Below, one piece after another: positions 33,714 to 42,108 of a DNA stretch of 64,000 nucleotides (the first letter of the stretch is position 1; the number at the start of each line of letters is the position of its first letter). Position numbers and translations under genes: made by a program. The stretch spans positions 62,001-126,000 of the forward strand of contig CAYXJN010000005.1 in assembly GCA_964464605.1 (NCBI GenBank), written 5' to 3'. The notes under the pieces were generated by a model that had not been told where the DNA came from, made no database searches, and saw only the letters and a program-made list of their open reading frames with translations. Source of the stretch: an uncultured Ignavibacteriales bacterium (GTDB lineage: Bacteria; Zixibacteria; MSB-5A5; GN15; FEB-12).

Positions 33714-36050
33714 TCAGTTGGCGGAATCAGGTGTCAAAATGAGCGTTTGAACACTGTGGGCAATGACTTGCTCATGCGTAAATGGCAGATTCCACCGGCG
33801 ACCGGACTCCCACAGCGGGAAAAAGTCAAAGAAATGGTCGCTCATGGGGTTACCGGATTCTCCGGCCGGCAAAACGAGGGTTGCCTCGTCGATTTTTGCG
33901 AAATCGACAATAAACCGCATACTCGGGGCGACAATGGTTCGAAATGAACCATCCTTTGTCGGGACGGCGAAAGCGGCGTTAAGTGTTCCGGACGAACCCG
34001 CCCACGGCCACGGTCCTTTTCGTAATTCCAAAATCGAACTGACCACCGGCACTTCGGCGAAAGGATGCTGCATCGCCAAGCTGTTTATATCCCCCCAGCG
34101 GTTATTGCCGAGATCACCGACTGCGTTTTTCATAGCGGAAAGCAGAGTTGAATCATCGGGTGCGGCGTTTTCGCCGAAAATTTCATCCTCAAGCCAGATT
34201 GTCCGGACACCCCGGGCGAGTGAATCGCCGACCAGGGATGCATGCGACGCCAGCTTCAAATGGCGGATAAACAGCTGGATGACCGCCGTCGGACGCGATT
34301 CCAGATCGGTAGCGCCATCCCATTGAGCGACCGTATCGGCGAGTGCCGCATTCCCCATCTTTCGTAGCTGATCCGCCGCCAGATTTTTCCAGCGCACGAG
34401 ACTGAAATCATGGCAGTCCATCTGGAACTTCTCGCAATCCCGCACCGAAACAAGAACTGCCGAGTCAAGCAGATGATTGATCCGCAGAATCCGGTCGGCG
34501 GCAAACGAGCCGGGAAGTTCATAGGGGAGATTTGTCGCCGGGATATTATTACAGGATGCCAGCCAACCGCGGGGCGGGTTATAAGCATGCGGAGTCATTT
34601 CGAGTGGCCAATACCCGCGCCATTCACACGTACTGTCACTTCCGTTGAGTGGTGCATTACTGTTTGGCAACGGTCGAATCGGGATTGGCGTACCTAACTG
34701 GTAACCGATATTGCCTTGTTTATCTGCGTACATCCAATTGGCATCAAGCGCGCCAAGCGTGGTAACAGCGCGTCGGAAATCTTCAAACTTGCTGACCGTT
34801 CGCAGGGCAAAACCGGAACTGACCGCCTGATTTAAATCGGCATCATACCCTGCCCAACGCTGCGATATAATTTCTTTGGTGGTGGAATCTTTCCAGATAA
34901 CCGGACCATGATGGGTCAGCCAGACCTGCTCGACATGCGGGGAATCAATGCCGTGAATGAACAGCGTTTCGGGAATAACAGAAAAGCTGCGCCACGTTTC
35001 ACCGCTCCAGTAAACGAGTGAATCCTCCGCCTGAGTCGTTTCCCGATAATATTCGGTGACATCGATTCCGGCGGCGGTAAAGGCAAAGGCCGCTTTGCCG
35101 TTGTGTCCCATCACCACGAACGGTAATCCGGGCAAAGAAATTCCCACAGTGCCGCTTGAATCTGCTGCTATGTGTAAACCCACCGCATACCAGAATTGCG
35201 GGAGCCGGCCGATTTCAAGATGCGGATCGGATGATAAAATCGCATTTCCGGAACTGCTTTTACCGGGGCTAATCACCCAGGCATTCGAACCGCCGCTTGG
35301 GGTAGTTAGTCCCGGTAAAATAGCCTGCGCAGTCGCATGACGGAATTGATCGTCGATATCAAAAAAGCTGATTGAAGAATCAGTCGGTACGGTCGGCGGC
35401 GCCCACGATGGATATTTTGTGCTAATCGTGTTGACACTTCCGGCTCCCTTGGTTTTGTACAATTCCAAAAACCAGCTATCACGGTTCTGCAATGAATTGG
35501 AAAACCAGGTTTGAAAGCTCAGGGCGGCAAGACAGTCTTTGACTGTCCATTCAGTGAAGGGGATGCCTAAGATTTGAAATTCGAAGGGAAGCGCTTTACA
35601 GTTTTTGACATAGAAATTAACCCCATCTGCGTAAATCTGTAGACGCTTTTTGTTTTCTTCCGTTAGCGTTGCCATCGCGCTGTCGGCAAGGCGATGGTGA
35701 CCAATTCGGCGCGCTTCCAAATCATATGATAAAGAAATTGGTCCCAGTAACTCAGAAAGTTTCCCCTGCGAAATACGGCGGATAAGCTCCATTTGAAACA
35801 GGCGGTCGGATGCATGCAGCCACCCCATCGAAAAAAGCGCGTCCTGTTCATTCTGTGCCCATACCTGCGGAATACCGAGACTGTCGAAGGTTATTTCAAC
35901 CGGATGCGAGAGTGCTTCGACGGTTATTGATCCTTCCCGCTGTGGAACGGAGTTGTGGAGCGTGACATACACATACAGCACCGCTCCGGCAAGCATGCTT
36001 GCCAAAAGAAGCAGGACAGAACGAAGGATGGTTTTCGTACGGGGTTTCAC
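33714..36050 (-). CDS. Penicillin acylase family Ntn-hydrolase, membrane-anchored or exported
   Basis: N-terminal TM; GWLHASDRLFQME, autoproteolysis site GG|SNAW, SDPHL, PGLP.V.MGHN, PSMRFIVD, GESGNP. GTG start overlaps the upstream TAG. Confidence 0.92.
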   Translation of the reverse strand: MKPRTKTILRSVLLLLASMLAGAVLYVYVTLHNSVPQREGSITVEALSHPVEITFDSLGIPQVWAQNEQDALFSMGWLHASDRLFQMELIRRISQGKLSELLGPISLSYDLEARRIGHHRLADSAMATLTEENKKRLQIYADGVNFYVKNCKALPFEFQILGIPFTEWTVKDCLAALSFQTWFSNSLQNRDSWFLELYKTKGAGSVNTISTKYPSWAPPTVPTDSSISFFDIDDQFRHATAQAILPGLTTPSGGSNAWVISPGKSSSGNAILSSDPHLEIGRLPQFWYAVGLHIAADSSGTVGISLPGLPFVVMGHNGKAAFAFTAAGIDVTEYYRETTQAEDSLVYWSGETWRSFSVIPETLFIHGIDSPHVEQVWLTHHGPVIWKDSTTKEIISQRWAGYDADLNQAVSSGFALRTVSKFEDFRRAVTTLGALDANWMYADKQGNIGYQLGTPIPIRPLPNSNAPLNGSDSTCEWRGYWPLEMTPHAYNPPRGWLASCNNIPATNLPYELPGSFAADRILRINHLLDSAVLVSVRDCEKFQMDCHDFSLVRWKNLAADQLRKMGNAALADTVAQWDGATDLESRPTAVIQLFIRHLKLASHASLVGDSLARGVRTIWLEDEIFGENAAPDDSTLLSAMKNAVGDLGNNRWGDINSLAMQHPFAEVPVVSSILELRKGPWPWAGSSGTLNAAFAVPTKDGSFRTIVAPSMRFIVDFAKIDEATLVLPAGESGNPMSDHFFDFFPLWESGRRWNLPFTHEQVIAHSVQTLILTPDSAN

Positions 36051-37405
36051 TAATTATTAATACCGCAGGCGGGGGCGGGAATACGGCCGCCGCGACGGAT
36101 AAAATCGGCAGAGGAAAACCGGGAGACCGGCATAATCGGGGCGGTTCCTAAAAGGCCGCCATACTCGACTGATTGACCGACTGTTTTGCCGGGAACCGGA
36201 ATAATACGGACGGCAGTGGTTTTGTTGTTCACCACACCGATAGCGGCTTCATCGGCAATAATCGCCGCGATAGTTTCAACTGGTGTATCACCGGGAACAG
36301 CGACCATATCAAGTCCGACTGAGCAGACAGCCGTCATCGCTTCCAATTTTTCAAGTGATATTGCACCTGCTTCGACTGCGCGAATCATACCGGCATCTTC
36401 AGAAACCGGAATGAACGCGCCGGATAACCCACCGACAAACGAGGAAGCCATCAACCCTCCTTTTTTCACCGCGTCATTCAGCAGCATGAGCGCTGCCGTA
36501 GTGCCGGGTGCGCCGCAGCGTTCGATTCCCATCGCTTCCAGAATATCCGCAACCGAATCTCCTTCGGCGGGAGTGGGGGCTAACGAGAGATCGACAATCC
36601 CAAACGGAACGCCGAGCCGTTCGGATACTTTTCGTCCTGCCAGTTCTCCCATACGGGTTACTTTAAAGGCAGTGCGTTTGATAACTTCAGCCAGCGTTCC
36701 GATATCACAGCTGCCTGCTTTGCGCACGGCGTTGAGTACGACGCCGGGGCCGGAGATACCGACATTGATAACCACTTCCGGTTCGGAAACGCCATGAAAG
36801 GCACCGGCAATGAACGGATTGTCTTCTACCGCATTGGCGAAGACGACCAATTTGCAGCAACCGAGCGCATTTTCCGTTTTGGCGGCGGTGTCTTTGATGA
36901 TATGACCCATCAGCGCGATCGCATCCATGTTGATTCCCGCTTTGGTCGAGGCGACATTTACCGATGAGCAGATTCGTTTAGTGGTAGCAAGGGCATCCGG
37001 AATCGATTCGATTAGGTTGCGATCACCGGTGGTCATCCCTTTTTGTACTAATGCGCCGTAGCCACCTAAATAATCGATACCGAGTTCTGCTGCGCAGTTG
37101 TCGAGTGTTTCGGCGATTTCGATGAGGGTCCCTTTATCATGTCCGCTTCCGACGATACCGATCGGGGTTACAGCGATTCTTTTGTTCGCGATCGGAATAC
37201 CGTAATCGGCGGAAACTTTCTCGACGGTTTTGACATGATGCTCTGCTTTGGCAAGCAGTTTGGCGCGGATATTGGCGATTAATCGCTTCGGGTCGGAAGT
37301 CGCACAATCCAACAGCGAAATGCCCATGGTGACGGTACGGATGTCGAGATGCTCGACTTCCGTCATATGAATCGTTTCGACTATTTCCTGCGGATGGTAT
37401 GACAT
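36050..37405 (-). CDS. UPF0210/DUF711 PFL-like family protein
   Basis: [81 protein letters not shown]. Confidence 0.93.
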
Positions 37406-37429
37406 AAAATTATGTACGAACGAAAAACG

Positions 37430-37957
37430 TTAAATACGGTGCATGTAGCGGAAGATGTCTTCATGCATGATGAACACCTTCATGCCCAGCTGCGTTTCGG
37501 TATCTTTGATCCGGTCACGTACCAGCGCAAAGTCCATTTTGCAGTCCTGAATATCGACAATCATGATCATCGAGAAAAAATCCTGCATGATTGTCTGCGA
37601 AATATCTTCGATATTGCAGTGCAGTTCCGCCAGCACTTTGGTAATGGCCGCGACAACGCCCGGGCGGTTTTTGCCGAAGGCCGCCACGATCACGCGGTTG
37701 CTTTGTCCCTGTGATATCTTGTTGTAAAGCCCGGAAACATCGCTCCCCGGTTCAGTGAAATTTGCCAGTGAAGATTTGGAATCCCGTGATGAGGCCGCGC
37801 AGGTGACAGCAGGAATCGACGGATTCCCCTGATCCTGTTTCATCGAATCGACGACTGAGTCGATTACCCGGCGGAGCGCTTTGGCATCAAGCGATGCGCC
37901 CATCCGCCCGACAACAATTTCCGTAATCCGGCTGATTTCCTGTTCAGAAAAATTCAT
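37430..37957 (-). CDS. UPF0237 ACT-domain protein with ~85-aa N-terminal extension
   Basis: GKNRPGVVA, NIEDISQTIMQDFFSMIMIVD and C-terminal EDIFRYMHRI; lies directly upstream of UPF0210 as in the known pair. Confidence 0.9.
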   Translation of the reverse strand: MNFSEQEISRITEIVVGRMGASLDAKALRRVIDSVVDSMKQDQGNPSIPAVTCAASSRDSKSSLANFTEPGSDVSGLYNKISQGQSNRVIVAAFGKNRPGVVAAITKVLAELHCNIEDISQTIMQDFFSMIMIVDIQDCKMDFALVRDRIKDTETQLGMKVFIMHEDIFRYMHRI

Positions 37958-37960
37958 GTG

Positions 37961-38098
37961 TTACGCGCGTGATGAGAATTGCGAACGTTCGGTGTATCGT
38001 TCGATCAGTTTTGCGGCGACGAACCCGATGATGATACCGGCAACGAATGAAGCCAGCCATTCCAGACGGCGTTTGGTTTGTTCGCTTAACGGTTTCAT
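37961..38098 (-). CDS. Small single-pass membrane protein, 45 aa (absent from ORF track)
   Basis: MKPLSEQTKRRLEWLASFVAGIIIGFVAAKLIERYTERSQFSSRA*; ATG overlaps the BMC-P stop (ATGA); TAA ends 3 nt before the ACT gene ATG, filling the gap exactly. Confidence 0.75.
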   Translation of the reverse strand: MKPLSEQTKRRLEWLASFVAGIIIGFVAAKLIERYTERSQFSSRA

Positions 38099-38421
38099 CC
38101 GGCTTTTTTCTTGTAATGAATTTTTTCGGGGTCCAAATCGCCGGTATAGAAGCTCGACTGTACTTCGTATTCGTCGATGATTCCGGTAACGGCTGCTTCG
38201 ATGGATGCGTTCTCATTCCCAATCGCCAAACGAGCGGCGCGGCCATAGGCGACAATCACCACTTCACCTTCGCCTGCACCGAGTACATCGGCTGCGACAA
38301 CGGTATCGGTATTCGGTGCTTTTTTCAGGTTAATGGGCTGGATAATGAGAAATTTGAGGCCATCGGTATTCGATGTTTTTCTCGTTGCCCAGAGTGTGCC
38401 GACGACGCGCCCGATAAACAT
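38095..38421 (-). CDS. BMC vertex pentamer (BMC-P, EutN/CcmL family)
   Basis: MFIGRVVGTLWATRK...GLKFLII...VAADVLGAGEGEVVIVAYGRAAR...IEAAVTGIID. Confidence 0.95.
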   Translation of the reverse strand: MFIGRVVGTLWATRKTSNTDGLKFLIIQPINLKKAPNTDTVVAADVLGAGEGEVVIVAYGRAARLAIGNENASIEAAVTGIIDEYEVQSSFYTGDLDPEKIHYKKKAG

Positions 38422-38423
38422 GG

Positions 38424-38942
38424 CTAACCCAGTTTCAGCGCGCTCTTGAGGGCATCCACCAACTGCGCTTTGCCGGCCATCGAAATTTCCCGTCCCTTAA
38501 TGCTGAGGTTAGAAACGGTGCGGGCTAACTGACGAAGTTCAGTAACAGTCATGTTTTCAAGTTCATGCGCGGAGGTTGGCTGCTTGATACTATCGCCGCC
38601 ATATTGCGAGTCACTGTGAATCGAGCTTAAGGCAGGGCGATTATCGGGATTGTATTTCGATACATAACGCGCATCCGGCAGTATCGTTACCAGTTCATTG
38701 TCCGGGCGGGGGATAACAGTGGTAGCGACCACTTCACCTGCTTGTTCTGCTGCGCGAGCGCCGGCTTCAACGGCTGATTGCACTGCGCTGAGTTCACCTT
38801 CAATGCGAAGGGTAAGATAGGCGGCATCGGTAACTTCAGCGGAAGATACCACCACACCGGCCGCTTTTGCTGCTGCATCGGCGGCGACAATCGCGCCGAT
38901 AAGGCCGTTTGTTTCGATAAGTCCAAGTGCGAACATTGTCAT
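38424..38942 (-). CDS. BMC shell hexamer (BMC-H) with C-terminal helical extension
   Basis: ALGLIETNGLIGAIVAADAAAKAA, GELSAVQSAVEAG, VIPRP; tail ELENMTVTELRQLAR...GREISMAGKAQLV. Confidence 0.95.
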   Translation of the reverse strand: MTMFALGLIETNGLIGAIVAADAAAKAAGVVVSSAEVTDAAYLTLRIEGELSAVQSAVEAGARAAEQAGEVVATTVIPRPDNELVTILPDARYVSKYNPDNRPALSSIHSDSQYGGDSIKQPTSAHELENMTVTELRQLARTVSNLSIKGREISMAGKAQLVDALKSALKLG

Positions 38943-38948
38943 TGGCCG

Positions 38949-38977
38949 AAGATACCCGCATTCAAACTTTCTGTAAA
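38949..38977 (-). promoter_or_regulatory. Sigma70-type promoter of the BMC operon, probably leaderless
   Basis: Minus strand TTTACA-N17-TATCTT, then 6 nt, then ATG; no SD sequence. Confidence 0.55.
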
Positions 38978-39030
38978 TGAATACTTAGTGACGTTGTCAC
39001 CTTTCTCTTTTTGATCGCATGATTTACCCC

Positions 39031-39069
39031 AAAAAGAAACCACCCGTATCCCCCTCGGACACGAGTGGC
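39031..39069 (-). terminator. Intrinsic terminator in the activator-BMC intergenic region
   Basis: Minus strand CCACTCGTGTCC-GAGGG-GGATACGGGTGG then TTTCTTTTT; two G-U pairs form only on the minus strand. Confidence 0.75.
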
Positions 39070-39124
39070 ACCCACCAAAGAGAAAAGAACAGACCGACTG
39101 CTTTACAGCGTCGGATTCAGGACA
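39031..39124 (-). ncRNA. Candidate ~95-nt small RNA
   Basis: Lies between a sigma54-type promoter and a terminator; GNRA-capped hairpin CCGACGCT-GTAA-AGCAGTCGG, pyrimidine-rich linker, terminator stem. Confidence 0.45.
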
Positions 39125-39134
39125 CAAAATGTGT

Positions 39135-39150
39135 CGCAAATTTTTTGCCG
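39135..39150 (-). promoter_or_regulatory. Candidate sigma54 -24/-12 promoter
   Basis: Minus strand CGGCAAAAAATTTGCG has exact GG-N10-GC spacing with GGCA and TTGC cores; downstream of a sigma54 activator gene. Confidence 0.5.
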
Positions 39151-39277
39151 TACCGATGTGGATAACGTGACCGGTTGTCGTATCGCATTGCAAGTCATTG
39201 CGTTACAGGGAGTGCGGCGCATCGAATGTGATGGAAATGAAAGAAAAAGTCGTATGATTTTACGAGCAGGTTGATCT

Positions 39278-39326
39278 AAATGAAAACGGTAAGCGATTGT
39301 TTTGTAATCACTTACCGTTTCATTTT
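39278..39326. repeat. Long imperfect inverted repeat (~21-bp arms)
   Basis: AAATGAAAACGGTAAGCGATT-GTTTTGT-AATCACTTACCGTTTCATTTT. Confidence 0.85.
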
Positions 39327-39389
39327 GACTCTATTTGAGAACGGTACGAATTTCAGTAAAATTCGTGAAACCGTACGTTCTTTTGTCGT

Positions 39390-41636
39390 CTAATGGAGCG
39401 CAACTCCTTCAACATGAATCTGGTACCGCTTGATCTTCGAACGGACCGTTGCTTCATGAATTCCGAGCAGGCGGGCAGCTTCGGATTTGTTTCCTTTTGC
39501 CGCCAAGAGTGCATCGGTAAGCAGCTGACGTTCAAATTGCTCAATGCGATCGAAGAAGGTGGTCGATTGGACCGCCGTCGTGTTGGTAAACATCGGCCGG
39601 GCGAGTTCAACCAGATCACCGTTACCCAGTTCTTCTGCCTGAGCTTCCAAGCGTTTCACTTTGTTATAGAGTTCGCGCACATTACCCGGCCAATGATAGG
39701 CAAGGAATGTTTGTAACAGTTCTGCGCTGACTTTAAATCCGCGCTGTCCGAGTGTTCCATTCGTAATGAACAGATCAAGCAGCAGCGGGATATCTTCTTT
39801 CCGTTCACGCAGCGCTGGGATATAGTGAATATCTCCGTCACAGATGCGGAAATACAGATCACGGCGGAACAGACCGCCTTCAACAAGCGAGGTCAAATCC
39901 CGATTTGTGGCGCAGATTAGGTTGATATCCAGTTTGACGGGTACCGTGCCGCCGAGCGGAGTAACTTCCCGACGTTCGAGCACACCGAGCAGTTTGGCCT
40001 GTAAATGAAGCGGCATGTCGCCGATTTCATCCAGAAACAATACACCGCCGTTGGCCGCGACGAACAATCCGGCTTTGTCCTCACGTGCGTCGGTAAATGC
40101 ACCGCGGCGATAGCCGAACAATTCCGATTCCAAAAGGGAGTCAGGTACACCGGCACAGTTGATCGACACAAACGGCGTTCCCGGGCGAACCTTGGAATGG
40201 AAAAAACGCGCCATCTGATCTTTACCGACACCTGTTTCTCCCGTTAACAAAACGGGAAGATTGGAGCGTGAGCCGATCAGCACGATCTGCTGTTTTACCC
40301 GTTCGACCGCAGCACAGCGAGTGATGAAATCAGCACTCTGCTGTTTGCTCTGATCGCTGCCGGCGATTTTGCGCTGATTGGTTTGTTCGAGCGCTTCGCC
40401 GATTTTATCGATCATCGTCGTGTGTCCGGATTGCGCGTAATATTCTTCAGCGCGAATCAGGTGCAGTACCCGTTTGTTGACCGGTATAGCAGTTGCGCAG
40501 CCGGCAAAGTATAGGATTTCCGCTTCTTCGAATCGCACACCGGATTGACGGGCTGATTCGATTGCACGGGCCCAGAATTCCTTTGCGGTTTCCTGCTGTG
40601 TTTCCGCTTCGGCAATCATGGCTAAAATGCGGTGCAGTCCGGCAAGATCACCGGTATTCGGCGTTTCCTGCATGACCACGATCGCTTTCTGCGCCAGCTG
40701 ACGGGCAGTGCGATAGTCACGAAGCGAGAGATTAGTTTCGGCTAATTGGCGCATCACGCGCGCGGTTAAACCGGAATCAGGCAGTACCTGTTCGGATAAA
40801 CGCAACGCATGAGCCAATACCTGTTTGCTTTCTTCAAGCAAACCCATACGGCGGCGCAGTTCGCCGATGTAGCTGTAGTACATCACTTCATCTCGCTTGT
40901 CGCCTGATAAACGGAGCGGTGTTACCGCTTCGCTCAAGGTTGCATCCGCTTCGGCATAATGACCGGATTGGATACAGGCGTAGGCGTAGGACATAAGGGC
41001 ACGGGCTGTTTCGGCATGGTCACGCAACGCGCGGGAGAGTTCGATATTGGTGCGCAAATGCGCTTTTGCGGATTGCAAGTTTCCGGAGAACAGATGGATA
41101 CGGCCGATATTACCGGTCATCAGGGCAATTTTTGCCGTATCGTTAAGTTTGTGCGCGATTTCCAGTGCATCGGCCAGAACATTCAACGCATTTTTCAAAT
41201 CATGCTGCTTGAAATAAATTCCGGCGAGACTGTTCAGCGCCCGCGCCTGACCTTCCAACAGGTCAAGGCGACGGAAGAGTGATTCGGCATCACGGAATGC
41301 CTGTTCCGCTTCTTTCGGTTTATCACTCTTTTTGAAAATATTGCCCAGCACGAAGAAAACTTCTGCGAGTTCCGCGGTTTCTCCGTTTTGGGTAAGGAAA
41401 TGCTGCGCCATGCGGGCAGCTTTTAGTGCGGCTGTGAGGTCAGCCAGCGCGCTGTATGCAGAAGCGGCCATTCTCATGAGAATGCCGGATTCTGCATCGG
41501 CTCGCTGTTCAATAACGGGACGATGAATATCCACGTACCGGACCACACCCGCAAAATCCCGCTTTTCAAGTAATGTCGCGGCTATGCGAACATCAAATGA
41601 TGTGGGATTCGACGATTCTGTGAAGGTACGGTTCAT
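39390..41636 (-). CDS. TPR-repeat sigma54-dependent activator (bEBP) with Fis-type HTH
   Basis: About 400 aa of TPR-like repeats; Walker A GETGVGKD, ESELFG, GAFTDA, FLDEIGD, FRRDLYFR, WPGNVREL; HTH GNKSEAARLLGI. Confidence 0.93.
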   Translation of the reverse strand: MNRTFTESSNPTSFDVRIAATLLEKRDFAGVVRYVDIHRPVIEQRADAESGILMRMAASAYSALADLTAALKAARMAQHFLTQNGETAELAEVFFVLGNIFKKSDKPKEAEQAFRDAESLFRRLDLLEGQARALNSLAGIYFKQHDLKNALNVLADALEIAHKLNDTAKIALMTGNIGRIHLFSGNLQSAKAHLRTNIELSRALRDHAETARALMSYAYACIQSGHYAEADATLSEAVTPLRLSGDKRDEVMYYSYIGELRRRMGLLEESKQVLAHALRLSEQVLPDSGLTARVMRQLAETNLSLRDYRTARQLAQKAIVVMQETPNTGDLAGLHRILAMIAEAETQQETAKEFWARAIESARQSGVRFEEAEILYFAGCATAIPVNKRVLHLIRAEEYYAQSGHTTMIDKIGEALEQTNQRKIAGSDQSKQQSADFITRCAAVERVKQQIVLIGSRSNLPVLLTGETGVGKDQMARFFHSKVRPGTPFVSINCAGVPDSLLESELFGYRRGAFTDAREDKAGLFVAANGGVLFLDEIGDMPLHLQAKLLGVLERREVTPLGGTVPVKLDINLICATNRDLTSLVEGGLFRRDLYFRICDGDIHYIPALRERKEDIPLLLDLFITNGTLGQRGFKVSAELLQTFLAYHWPGNVRELYNKVKRLEAQAEELGNGDLVELARPMFTNTTAVQSTTFFDRIEQFERQLLTDALLAAKGNKSEAARLLGIHEATVRSKIKRYQIHVEGVALH

Positions 41637-41983
41637 CAGTTAGCTCCTCCATTTTTAACGGAGCTGTTGTCTGACGGAGCGGGTTGCGGAGCAACGCGCG
41701 GCTGTTTTGGTGCGATCAGGAGATTGAGTAAGGTGTTCGAAAGCCAGATTTCAAACCGCGGTGAAAGCGTAGCGCTTCGCATTGCCTGACGGCCTGCTTT
41801 ACCGCCGCCGTTACCATTCGTGCCGGAGCCATCGCCACCCCACGGGTGATCTTCATTTTCCACGCCATTTTCGGTATTAGCCGGACGGTGGTAATACGGA
41901 CTTTCCCGTCCGTCTATATCCCCCACAAAAGCAAGGGTGGCAGTGAAGAGCATACTCAAAGTGAGTACAAATGAGCGTTTCAT
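41636..41983 (-). CDS. Small secreted low-complexity protein (115 aa) with EDHPWGG motif
   Basis: AAGGAG RBS; signal peptide MKRSFVLTLSMLFTATLAF; TGA overlaps the activator ATG (TGATG). Confidence 0.8.
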   Translation of the reverse strand: MKRSFVLTLSMLFTATLAFVGDIDGRESPYYHRPANTENGVENEDHPWGGDGSGTNGNGGGKAGRQAMRSATLSPRFEIWLSNTLLNLLIAPKQPRVAPQPAPSDNSSVKNGGAN

Positions 41984-42108
41984 GGACTAAGGCTCCTTTC
42001 CGAGGTTTTATAAAATTACCGGTTAGGTATTTATGTATTCGAATACATGGCGGGTGAGGCAATTCGTGAGGGGAATGCTATGTACATCCTTGTCAGCATC
42101 CATACTGT

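Follow-up and report, generated by a model that had tools for sequence, protein, structure and literature searches.

A probable free-standing small RNA gene beside a TPR sigma-54 activator in Zixibacteria, with an anti-sigma factor start region as its likely target in the family

The window analysed here, a stretch of 64,000 nucleotides from an uncultured Zixibacteria bacterium (assembly GCA_964464605.1, contig CAYXJN010000005.1, positions 62,001 to 126,000), contains a candidate gene for a small RNA (sRNA) next to the gene of a sigma-54 activator, and this sRNA gene, its relatives and its possible targets are our subject. To our knowledge, the Zixibacteria have no cultured member. All features of the locus lie on the minus strand. 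The cassette opens with a gene for an exported-looking protein of 115 aa (41636..41983), for which no Pfam or NCBIfam family was found and which carries an invariant (E/D)DHPWGG(D/E) motif in an alignment of eight orthologues. It is followed by the activator gene (39390..41636), which encodes a bacterial enhancer-binding protein with Pfam matches to TPR repeats, the Sigma54_activat AAA+ domain, the AAA lid and HTH_8; its Walker A motif GETGVGK is intact and its loop reads GAFTDA, the usual loop of sigma-54 activators being GAFTGA. Downstream of the gene stand two palindromes of the upstream activating sequence (UAS) type, the distal one ACGTA-N6-CACGA (39363..39378, 228 nt 5' of the promoter GG) and the proximal one TCGTA-N6-TACGA (39250..39265), and between them the terminator hairpin of the activator gene, AACGGTAAGYG...CGCTTACCGTT with a T run (39278..39320). 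The sigma-54-type promoter CGGCAAAAAATTTGCG occupies 39135..39150, with its -24 GG at 39149-48 and its -12 GC at 39137-36; the GG lies 240 nt from the stop codon of the activator.

Sigma-54 transcription usually starts about 12 nt after the -12 element. With the start placed 12 nt past the -12 C and the end at the U tract, the predicted sRNA is 94 nt long (39031..39124). A remnant of the 5' seed block of the family, CACATTTTGTGTCC (39120..39133), falls mostly 5' of this start. The RNA continues with stem-loop 1 (39094..39114; GUAA loop, 8 pairs and one bulged A), a single-stranded pyrimidine seed (39073..39090) that includes the tract GUUCUUUUCUCUUUGG at 39090-39075, and stem-loop 2, an intrinsic terminator with its U tract (39031..39069) and a near-invariant loop GAGGGG(A/G). 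The terminator stem (39069-39039) has 13 pairs, 7 of them G-C and several G-U, around a 5-nt loop, and is followed by TTCTTTTT to 39031. A preliminary description of the window had proposed this same succession of a GG-N10-GC promoter, a GNRA-capped hairpin, an unpaired pyrimidine tract, a stem with G-U pairs and a U tract, and each element is found where it was placed, with 13 pairs in the stem instead of 12. Stem-loop 2 is the top terminator-like site of a 4.5-kb scan (18 sites versus 5.6 expected), and the 201-nt fold at the locus has z = -3.28 versus shuffles. An 84-aa open reading frame (ORF) that overlaps the sRNA is without a family match. The RNA belongs to no described RNA family: scanning the stretch 39031-39150 against Rfam 15 gave zero matches at E up to 10, Qrr included.

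The element recurs well beyond the window. By DNA search of 61 related genomes the piece 39088-39029 was found in eight other genera at 76-100% identity. The first eight related loci have the same order of parts, with the RNA ~400 nt past a ~750-aa ORF in all eight and an ORF of ~116-133 aa directly 5' of the latter in seven, the eighth (L019) being cut by a contig end. A covariance model built from nine sequences, with the promoter excluded, was run on 80 loci found via the TPR region of the activator; it matches 60 of them, every match lying on the activator strand about 400 nt past the activator stop. The 20 loci without a match comprise 13 cut by contig ends, two that end just after GGCA-N7-TGC and five that are fully flanked. 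In these five (L036, L078, L100, L101 and L103; 34-44% identity to the TPR region of the window), with ~1.9 kb of downstream flank, the RNA, a promoter of this type and the palindromes were all not found, and they may be paralogues or lineages where the RNA was lost or moved. The window sRNA scores 86.1 bits (E 2.4e-19) and is a single copy in its genome. The model is positive in 71 of 151 sampled Zixibacteria genomes, all within one order, with 51/54, 3/3, 10/10 and 6/15 positives in four of its families, and gives no match in 68 genomes of 15 other Zixibacteria families. One copy per genome is present in 68 of the 71 positive genomes. A second, weak match (29-31 bits), possibly a diverged extra copy, was seen at G011:C30:32455-32560, G126:C3:11835-11935 and G106:C5:156871-156970.

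Both helices covary among the relatives. The alignment used for this test has 61 rows (60 distinct sequences); the columns of stem-loop 2 were fitted to the covariance model and stem-loop 1, which lies outside the model, was added by hand. Compensatory (double) changes occur in 19 of 21 pairs, 90.8% of cells are paired versus 35-49% with a slid partner, and the covariation values are matched by none of 500 shuffles. All 8 pairs of stem-loop 1 show compensatory changes, as do 11 of the 13 in stem-loop 2, where 96% of cells are paired. The substitution pattern of the family is that of helices, and its conserved single strands are the 5' end UGUCAUUUUUACUCC, the tract before stem-loop 2 and the loop GAGGGG(A). 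Within the pyrimidine seed, UUUUCUCUUUGG is identical in all nine sequences first aligned. Some copies depart from the common form: in L079, L054 and L099 stem-loop 2 is without a U tail and a G+C-rich hairpin with a T run stands ~20 nt further, so that their predicted RNA would be ~150 nt long with three stem-loops, while in L053 the 5' block is duplicated (TTACTCCCAAAATTACTCCCAAA) and the promoter lies correspondingly farther upstream. The hexamer GUGUCC occurs twice in the window copy, at 39120-39125 (RNA 5' block) and at 39058-39063 (apical 5' arm of the terminator), and ACUC(C) repeats stand likewise in the 5' block and the terminator arm of relatives.

The sigma-54 promoter consensus is TGGCAC-N5-TTGCW, and the window promoter reads cGGCAa-N5-TTGCg. 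GGCA-N7-TGC is present just 5' of the RNA in 59 of 61 copies, in a region that had been left out of the covariance model; of the two others one has GGTA and the second row (L060) is misaligned at its 5' end. By itself this motif is no rarity: the two strands of the window's 2.8-Mb genome contain 383 sites. Among these sites the sRNA promoter alone has two CGTN-N6-NACG palindromes upstream, and five other strict palindromes in the genome have no GGCA-N7-TGC promoter nearby. In the family, all 60 copies have the loose palindrome CGTN-N6-NACG and 53 of them have two, versus 7/60 and 0/60 in a shuffled control; the strict form TCGTA-N6-TACGA is found in 58 of 60, and the palindromes cluster at -120..-111 and -210..-201 from the GG. 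RpoN is encoded in the window's genome (RpoN DNA-binding domain, 206.6 bits). The palindromes are presumably bound by the adjoining activator, and because the sRNA promoter is the only GGCA-N7-TGC with a palindrome pair and the other palindromes are promoterless, the motif search suggests that the sRNA may be the only direct target of the activator in this genome. An IHF-like site, sought by a regular expression, was found in 10 of 60 copies and not in the window. As for the terminator of the activator gene between the two UAS, its hairpin GGTAAGY...RCTTACC (GCGGUAAGCG...CGCUUACCGC) is kept in 41 of 60 copies, and in 32 of 60 the string ACUCCUUGG, a perfect anti-Shine-Dalgarno, stands before it; in the window the hairpin is present and ACUCCUUGG is absent. 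The 3' untranslated region (UTR) of the activator (39278-39345 in the window) could yield a second, 3'UTR-derived small RNA.

The conserved 5' end of the RNA points to a target. Its complement, GGAGUAAAAAUGACA, reads as a Shine-Dalgarno sequence, a spacer and AUG. In a pattern search of 108 genomes of the family, five genomes, each of a different genus, had their best match outside the RNA itself at the start of one orthologous gene of ~190 aa with a zf-HC2 domain, placed after an extracytoplasmic function (ECF) sigma gene. This anti-sigma orthologue is present in 99 of the 108 genomes, and its start region is nearly invariant in proteins only 29-58% identical. We took the RNA and the anti-sigma start region from 47 genomes and found a mean of -21.56 kcal/mol for cognate duplexes versus -18.28 (standard deviation 0.34) for permuted ones, a value reached by 0 of 20,000 permutations, though this count overstates the significance because related genomes are not independent; the result is the same with 41 unique seed/start classes. 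In a fixed register all 14 positions are paired in 26 of the 47 genomes and 13 in four, where the values for G012 and G027 (9 and 10 of 14) are too low, both being mis-anchored at an earlier GTC; by eye they reach 14 and 13. Watson-Crick double changes were seen from U to C in the mRNA with A to G in the RNA (8 genomes, 3 genera) and from A to G in the mRNA with U to C in the RNA (4 genomes, 3 genera), and genus g12 has them at two positions. At several positions the changes in seed and start are complementary, not merely associated. The partners are far from each other, the RNA and the anti-sigma gene lying 1-2 Mb apart in single-contig genomes (G012, G089). Since the 5' strand pairs with the Shine-Dalgarno sequence and AUG, it should block synthesis of the anti-sigma factor and thereby free the ECF sigma factor; this direction of regulation is likely.

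The preliminary description had the RNA pair through its pyrimidine tract with purine-rich ribosome-binding sites (RBSs). Such targeting is seen in the family, with compensatory changes, through a different seed, the 5' end that is antisense to the anti-sigma start, and it has been lost in the window's own genome. The third gene of the ECF sigma/anti-sigma operon (L168-L197, just past the anti-sigma stop) has a signal-peptide-like start M-K-R/K-L-T-A and a very purine-rich RBS (GAGAGGAGA), and in genus g24 its start region holds CACCAAAGAG, complementary to the RNA tract and the next bases. When the pyrimidine seed was tried against this gene, the best site within +/-900 nt lay there in 8 of 17 genomes, which is indistinguishable from a general attraction to purine-rich RBSs, and we rejected the gene as a candidate.

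The copy in the window is a variant. Its promoter motif has an offset of 31, versus 19-22 in 57 of 59 motif-bearing copies, i.e. 11 nt nearer the conserved 5' block, and the distance from the proximal UAS to the promoter is normal. About 11 nt are gone from the stretch that joins the -12 box to the former start, and the transcript would now begin within the former seed, at 39124. In the same genome the anti-sigma orthologue (G000:C4:271547-272086, minus) has a diverged start region (auaggagcucuAUGACC), and its duplex with the window RNA reaches only -7.3 to -9.8 kcal/mol, compared with the family mean of -21.6; pairing of the family's first seed with the anti-sigma start is absent in the window's genome. 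A few other genera also pair weakly, for example g17 at -9.6 and -12.1.

The UUUUCUCUUUGG tract is intact in the window copy, and three exact complements of it are found at other places in the genome. One of these complements lies at +4..+15 of a 60-aa ORF (G000:C11:16106-16285; MPKRK...KDCWHxYSLQ) that has no Pfam or NCBIfam family and is present in 107 of the 108 family genomes; at least 19 genomes have the exact 12-mer at this +4 position. RNA 39086-39073 pairs with G000:C11:16107-16120 over 14 contiguous positions (12 Watson-Crick, 2 G-U), from the UG of the start codon to the end of codon 5. Runs of at least 10 pairs with this start were found in 14 of 15 genomes tested, and a mean energy as good as the one observed was obtained with only 0.5% of shuffled seeds. 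We regard the start of the 60-aa ORF as a candidate target, the best one in the window's genome. Just 5' of it lies a gene (G000:C11:15568-15897; L279:963-1292) for a 109-aa protein with little beyond a sigma-70 region-4 / GerE-type helix-turn-helix. A search for 10-mer matches to the RNA in the window's genome gave no pattern, the list for the 5' part being uninformative, and the complement of the pyrimidine seed, taken at the first-listed locus in each of the 108 genomes, showed no recurrent context.

The variant state of the window copy could mean that it is a decaying relic, in which the promoter shift has removed the working seed and the RNA regulates nothing. The promoter position shared with so few motif-bearing copies, the lost pairing with the anti-sigma start and the missing anti-Shine-Dalgarno-like ACUCCUUGG of the activator 3' UTR, which 32 of 60 copies have, would all agree with decay. 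However, the copy has an intact promoter, two intact UAS at the conserved spacing, and undamaged helices, loop and invariant 12-nt tract. Its model score of 86 bits is mid-range for the family, and 14 bases of the tract remain complementary to the 60-aa ORF start; we hold a relic to be improbable.

A further explanation concerns the genes that follow the RNA. The next gene in the window encodes a bacterial microcompartment (BMC) domain shell protein (38424..38942; Pfam); it is a neighbour outside the RNA unit and has a sigma-70-like promoter candidate of its own, TTTACA-17-TATCTT (38949..38977, 9/12 matches). It starts an unusual set of genes (33714-38942, minus) whose first product is a BMC-H-like extended shell protein (172 aa), followed by EutN/CcmL (108 aa), an ACT-domain protein, DUF711 (451 aa) and a penicillin amidase (778 aa). 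The RNA could be a cis-acting leader or attenuator of this BMC/DUF711 operon, with the sigma-54 promoter driving the operon and stem-loop 2 opened or closed by alternative pairing or a bound factor. In the window, as in 20 of the 56 assessable relatives, the RNA does have a BMC-domain gene of the same orientation within ~140 nt downstream, the U tract of the window terminator is broken by a C, and the 5' block GUGUCC, repeating the apical 5' arm of the terminator, could compete for the 3' arm (GGAUAC in the window, GGAGUG in relatives). Yet the other 36 relatives have a different next gene behind an equally conserved RNA: 17 have an ORF on the opposite strand, and on the same strand there are six short-chain dehydrogenases, five sodium:solute symporters, two phospholipase D-like genes and six ORFs of no family. 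Pairing of the 5' CUCC with the terminator GGAG is possible, but neither side varies anywhere in the alignment. The start region of the BMC gene as a target gives a mean z of -0.08 over 20 loci, and no exact complement of the RNA of at least 10 nt recurs at a common place in 60 loci. The complement of the tract near 39002-39010, on which the preliminary description had based its own suggestion of an attenuator, is indeed there (AAAGAGAAA at 39010-39002) and has no counterpart in relatives. Moreover, the window has a promoter-like TTTAC(A/T)-N17-TAT..T box in the spacer that separates the terminator from the BMC start, and inspection by eye shows one in at least 11 of the 20 BMC-linked relatives, in agreement with the separate promoter first proposed for the operon. 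This box often ends ~9 nt before the BMC ATG and would then give a nearly leaderless mRNA. Because the downstream gene varies among relatives, the RNA unit is not read as a BMC leader, which we consider quite improbable, and these comparisons gave no support to an attenuator. What the RNA is tied to is the activator, all 60 related copies being on its strand, as expected for the independent transcript that had been suggested.

A protein-binding or decoy RNA, such as a CsrA sponge or a Shine-Dalgarno mimic acting through its invariant GAGGGGA loop and not by base pairing, might explain why the loop GAGGGG(A) is kept whatever bases close it in a genome that encodes CsrA and lacks Hfq and ProQ, but it is extremely unlikely in view of the single conserved GGA hairpin, the position of csrA in a flagellar cluster with fliW nearby, and the compensatory changes with an mRNA start region, which favour base pairing. 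Specifically, csrA lies between FlgK-like and flagellin-domain genes with fliW ~2 kb away, and where the genes are so arranged CsrA is antagonized by the protein FliW. Neither Hfq (PF17209) nor ProQ gave a match in the window's genome, which is rated 100% complete.

We conclude that 39124-39031 (minus) is probably a free-standing gene for an Hfq-independent, trans-acting sRNA of ~94 nt, controlled by the adjoining activator, whose seed in the family targets an anti-sigma gene. The motifs, their conservation, the RNA structure and the co-variation of seed and anti-sigma start in relatives, all present in the sequences themselves, carry this conclusion; from them we infer transcription of the RNA, its dependence on RpoN and the activator, the direction of regulation and the target in the window's genome. 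According to the mechanism we propose, the TPR sigma-54 activator would bind the two palindromes at about -116 and -229 and then open the -24/-12 promoter, and transcription would stop at the strong terminator of stem-loop 2. The resulting RNA would run from a 5' single strand through the covarying stem-loop 1 and the invariant single-stranded pyrimidine tract to the terminator. Its 5' strand UGUCAUUUUUACUCC would, in most relatives, pair with the Shine-Dalgarno sequence and AUG of the zf-HC2 anti-sigma gene, which follows its ECF sigma gene elsewhere in the genome, so that anti-sigma synthesis would be blocked and the ECF sigma factor freed. In the window's genome, with ~11 nt lost and the anti-sigma start diverged, this first pairing is gone, and the promoter, UAS, helices and pyrimidine seed are kept.

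Several points weigh against the free-standing, trans-acting sRNA. All genomes compared are metagenome bins, and the start at 39124 follows from the usual sigma-54 spacing. The seed with strong comparative support is missing in the very genome of the window. For the second seed, the permutation test with the 60-aa ORF is not significant (1565 of 10,000 reach the observed value) because both partners hardly vary, and the codons for MPKRK also limit variation on the mRNA side of this pairing. Over 2375 start regions of the window's genome, duplex energies were no better than those of reversed or shuffled seeds, in a ranking from which the 60-aa ORF is missing because ORFs under 90 aa were left out. 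The one metatranscriptome run with any match to the stretch contained 6% of the sampled words; compared with 38000-42000, it gave one identical contig of 263 nt, 40146-40408, inside the activator gene, and a 43-nt piece of another organism, with the RNA itself uncovered. Finally, 21 of 57 loci, the window among them, have a BMC gene behind the RNA in the same orientation; this recurrent neighbourhood is real, and some control by read-through may exist.

More tentatively, the whole cassette can be viewed as a complete, undescribed signalling relay of a diderm phylum, running from the exported HPW-motif protein through the TPR sigma-54 activator that would sense it to an Hfq-independent sRNA with two seeds as its single direct output. 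The seeds would silence the zf-HC2 anti-sigma factor, turning the ECF sigma factor on, and the 60-aa protein, and the window would present a relay in the course of rewiring, with one seed and its target lost together and the second arm kept. The exported protein would act at the head of such a relay, and an analogy with arbitrium and its RNA aimX suggests itself. We consider this extended scheme doubtful as a whole.

No relevant work on small RNAs or sigma factors of Zixibacteria came up in a literature search. The well-supported new RNA family described here thus comes from a phylum without a described regulatory RNA, and it offers a concrete, testable RNA target derived purely from co-variation. 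Two transcription systems would be linked by it, since a sigma-54 activator would control an ECF sigma factor via RNA. The window copy is a natural 'seed deletion' variant that can show which function needs which seed. Pxr, Qrr and FlmE already provide precedents for the logic, whether of a sigma-54 sRNA beside its activator or of an sRNA directed at an anti-sigma factor; new are the distribution at order level, an anti-sigma target backed by co-variation, the variant nature of the window copy and the second candidate target.

The nearest arrangement is that of Pxr in Myxococcus xanthus, which follows the gene of the sigma-54 response regulator nla19 after a 262-nt spacer and is a 108-nt gene with a sigma-54 promoter (PMC5568312). 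Both RNA genes lie just past a sigma-54 activator gene, have their own sigma-54 promoter and give a multi-stem-loop RNA of ~100 nt, with 240 nt from stop to GG and a predicted 94-nt RNA here against an intergenic region of ~260 nt for Pxr. The binding targets of Pxr were described as unknown in 2025 (PMC11928866). The Zixibacteria RNA differs in that its target can be inferred from co-variation, in that sequence and model similarity is absent (no Rfam match, E up to 10), and in its activator, which senses via TPR repeats, the nla19 product doing so via a receiver domain.

Qrr RNAs need Hfq. In Vibrio, they are driven by LuxO and sigma-54 (PMC10162802). In this the two systems are alike, the output of a sigma-54 activator being a small RNA and not a protein. 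They differ in that no Hfq was found here, in one copy versus up to five, in the sensor, and in the lack of an Rfam match.

Repression of an anti-sigma factor by sRNA is described for CJnc230/FlmE of Campylobacter jejuni, which is RpoN-dependent and represses FlgM (PMC11187230), and for OmrA/B of Escherichia coli, which also repress FlgM (PMC7549644). The outcome would be shared, as an sRNA stops anti-sigma synthesis and a sigma factor is turned on. Unlike in these cases, the target here is the zf-HC2 partner of an ECF sigma factor and not FlgM, the pairing has been lost in the window's genome, and the RNA is predicted to be a primary transcript with its own enhancer and not a product of mRNA processing. 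Last, C/U-rich sRNAs of the RsaE/RoxS type mask Shine-Dalgarno sequences independently of Hfq. The Zixibacteria RNA resembles them in the pairing of exposed pyrimidine-rich single strands with start regions rich in purines, in a host that lacks Hfq; it differs in sequence and phylum, both unrelated, and in the position of its seeds, which lie in the single strands flanking stem-loop 1 and not in hairpin loops.

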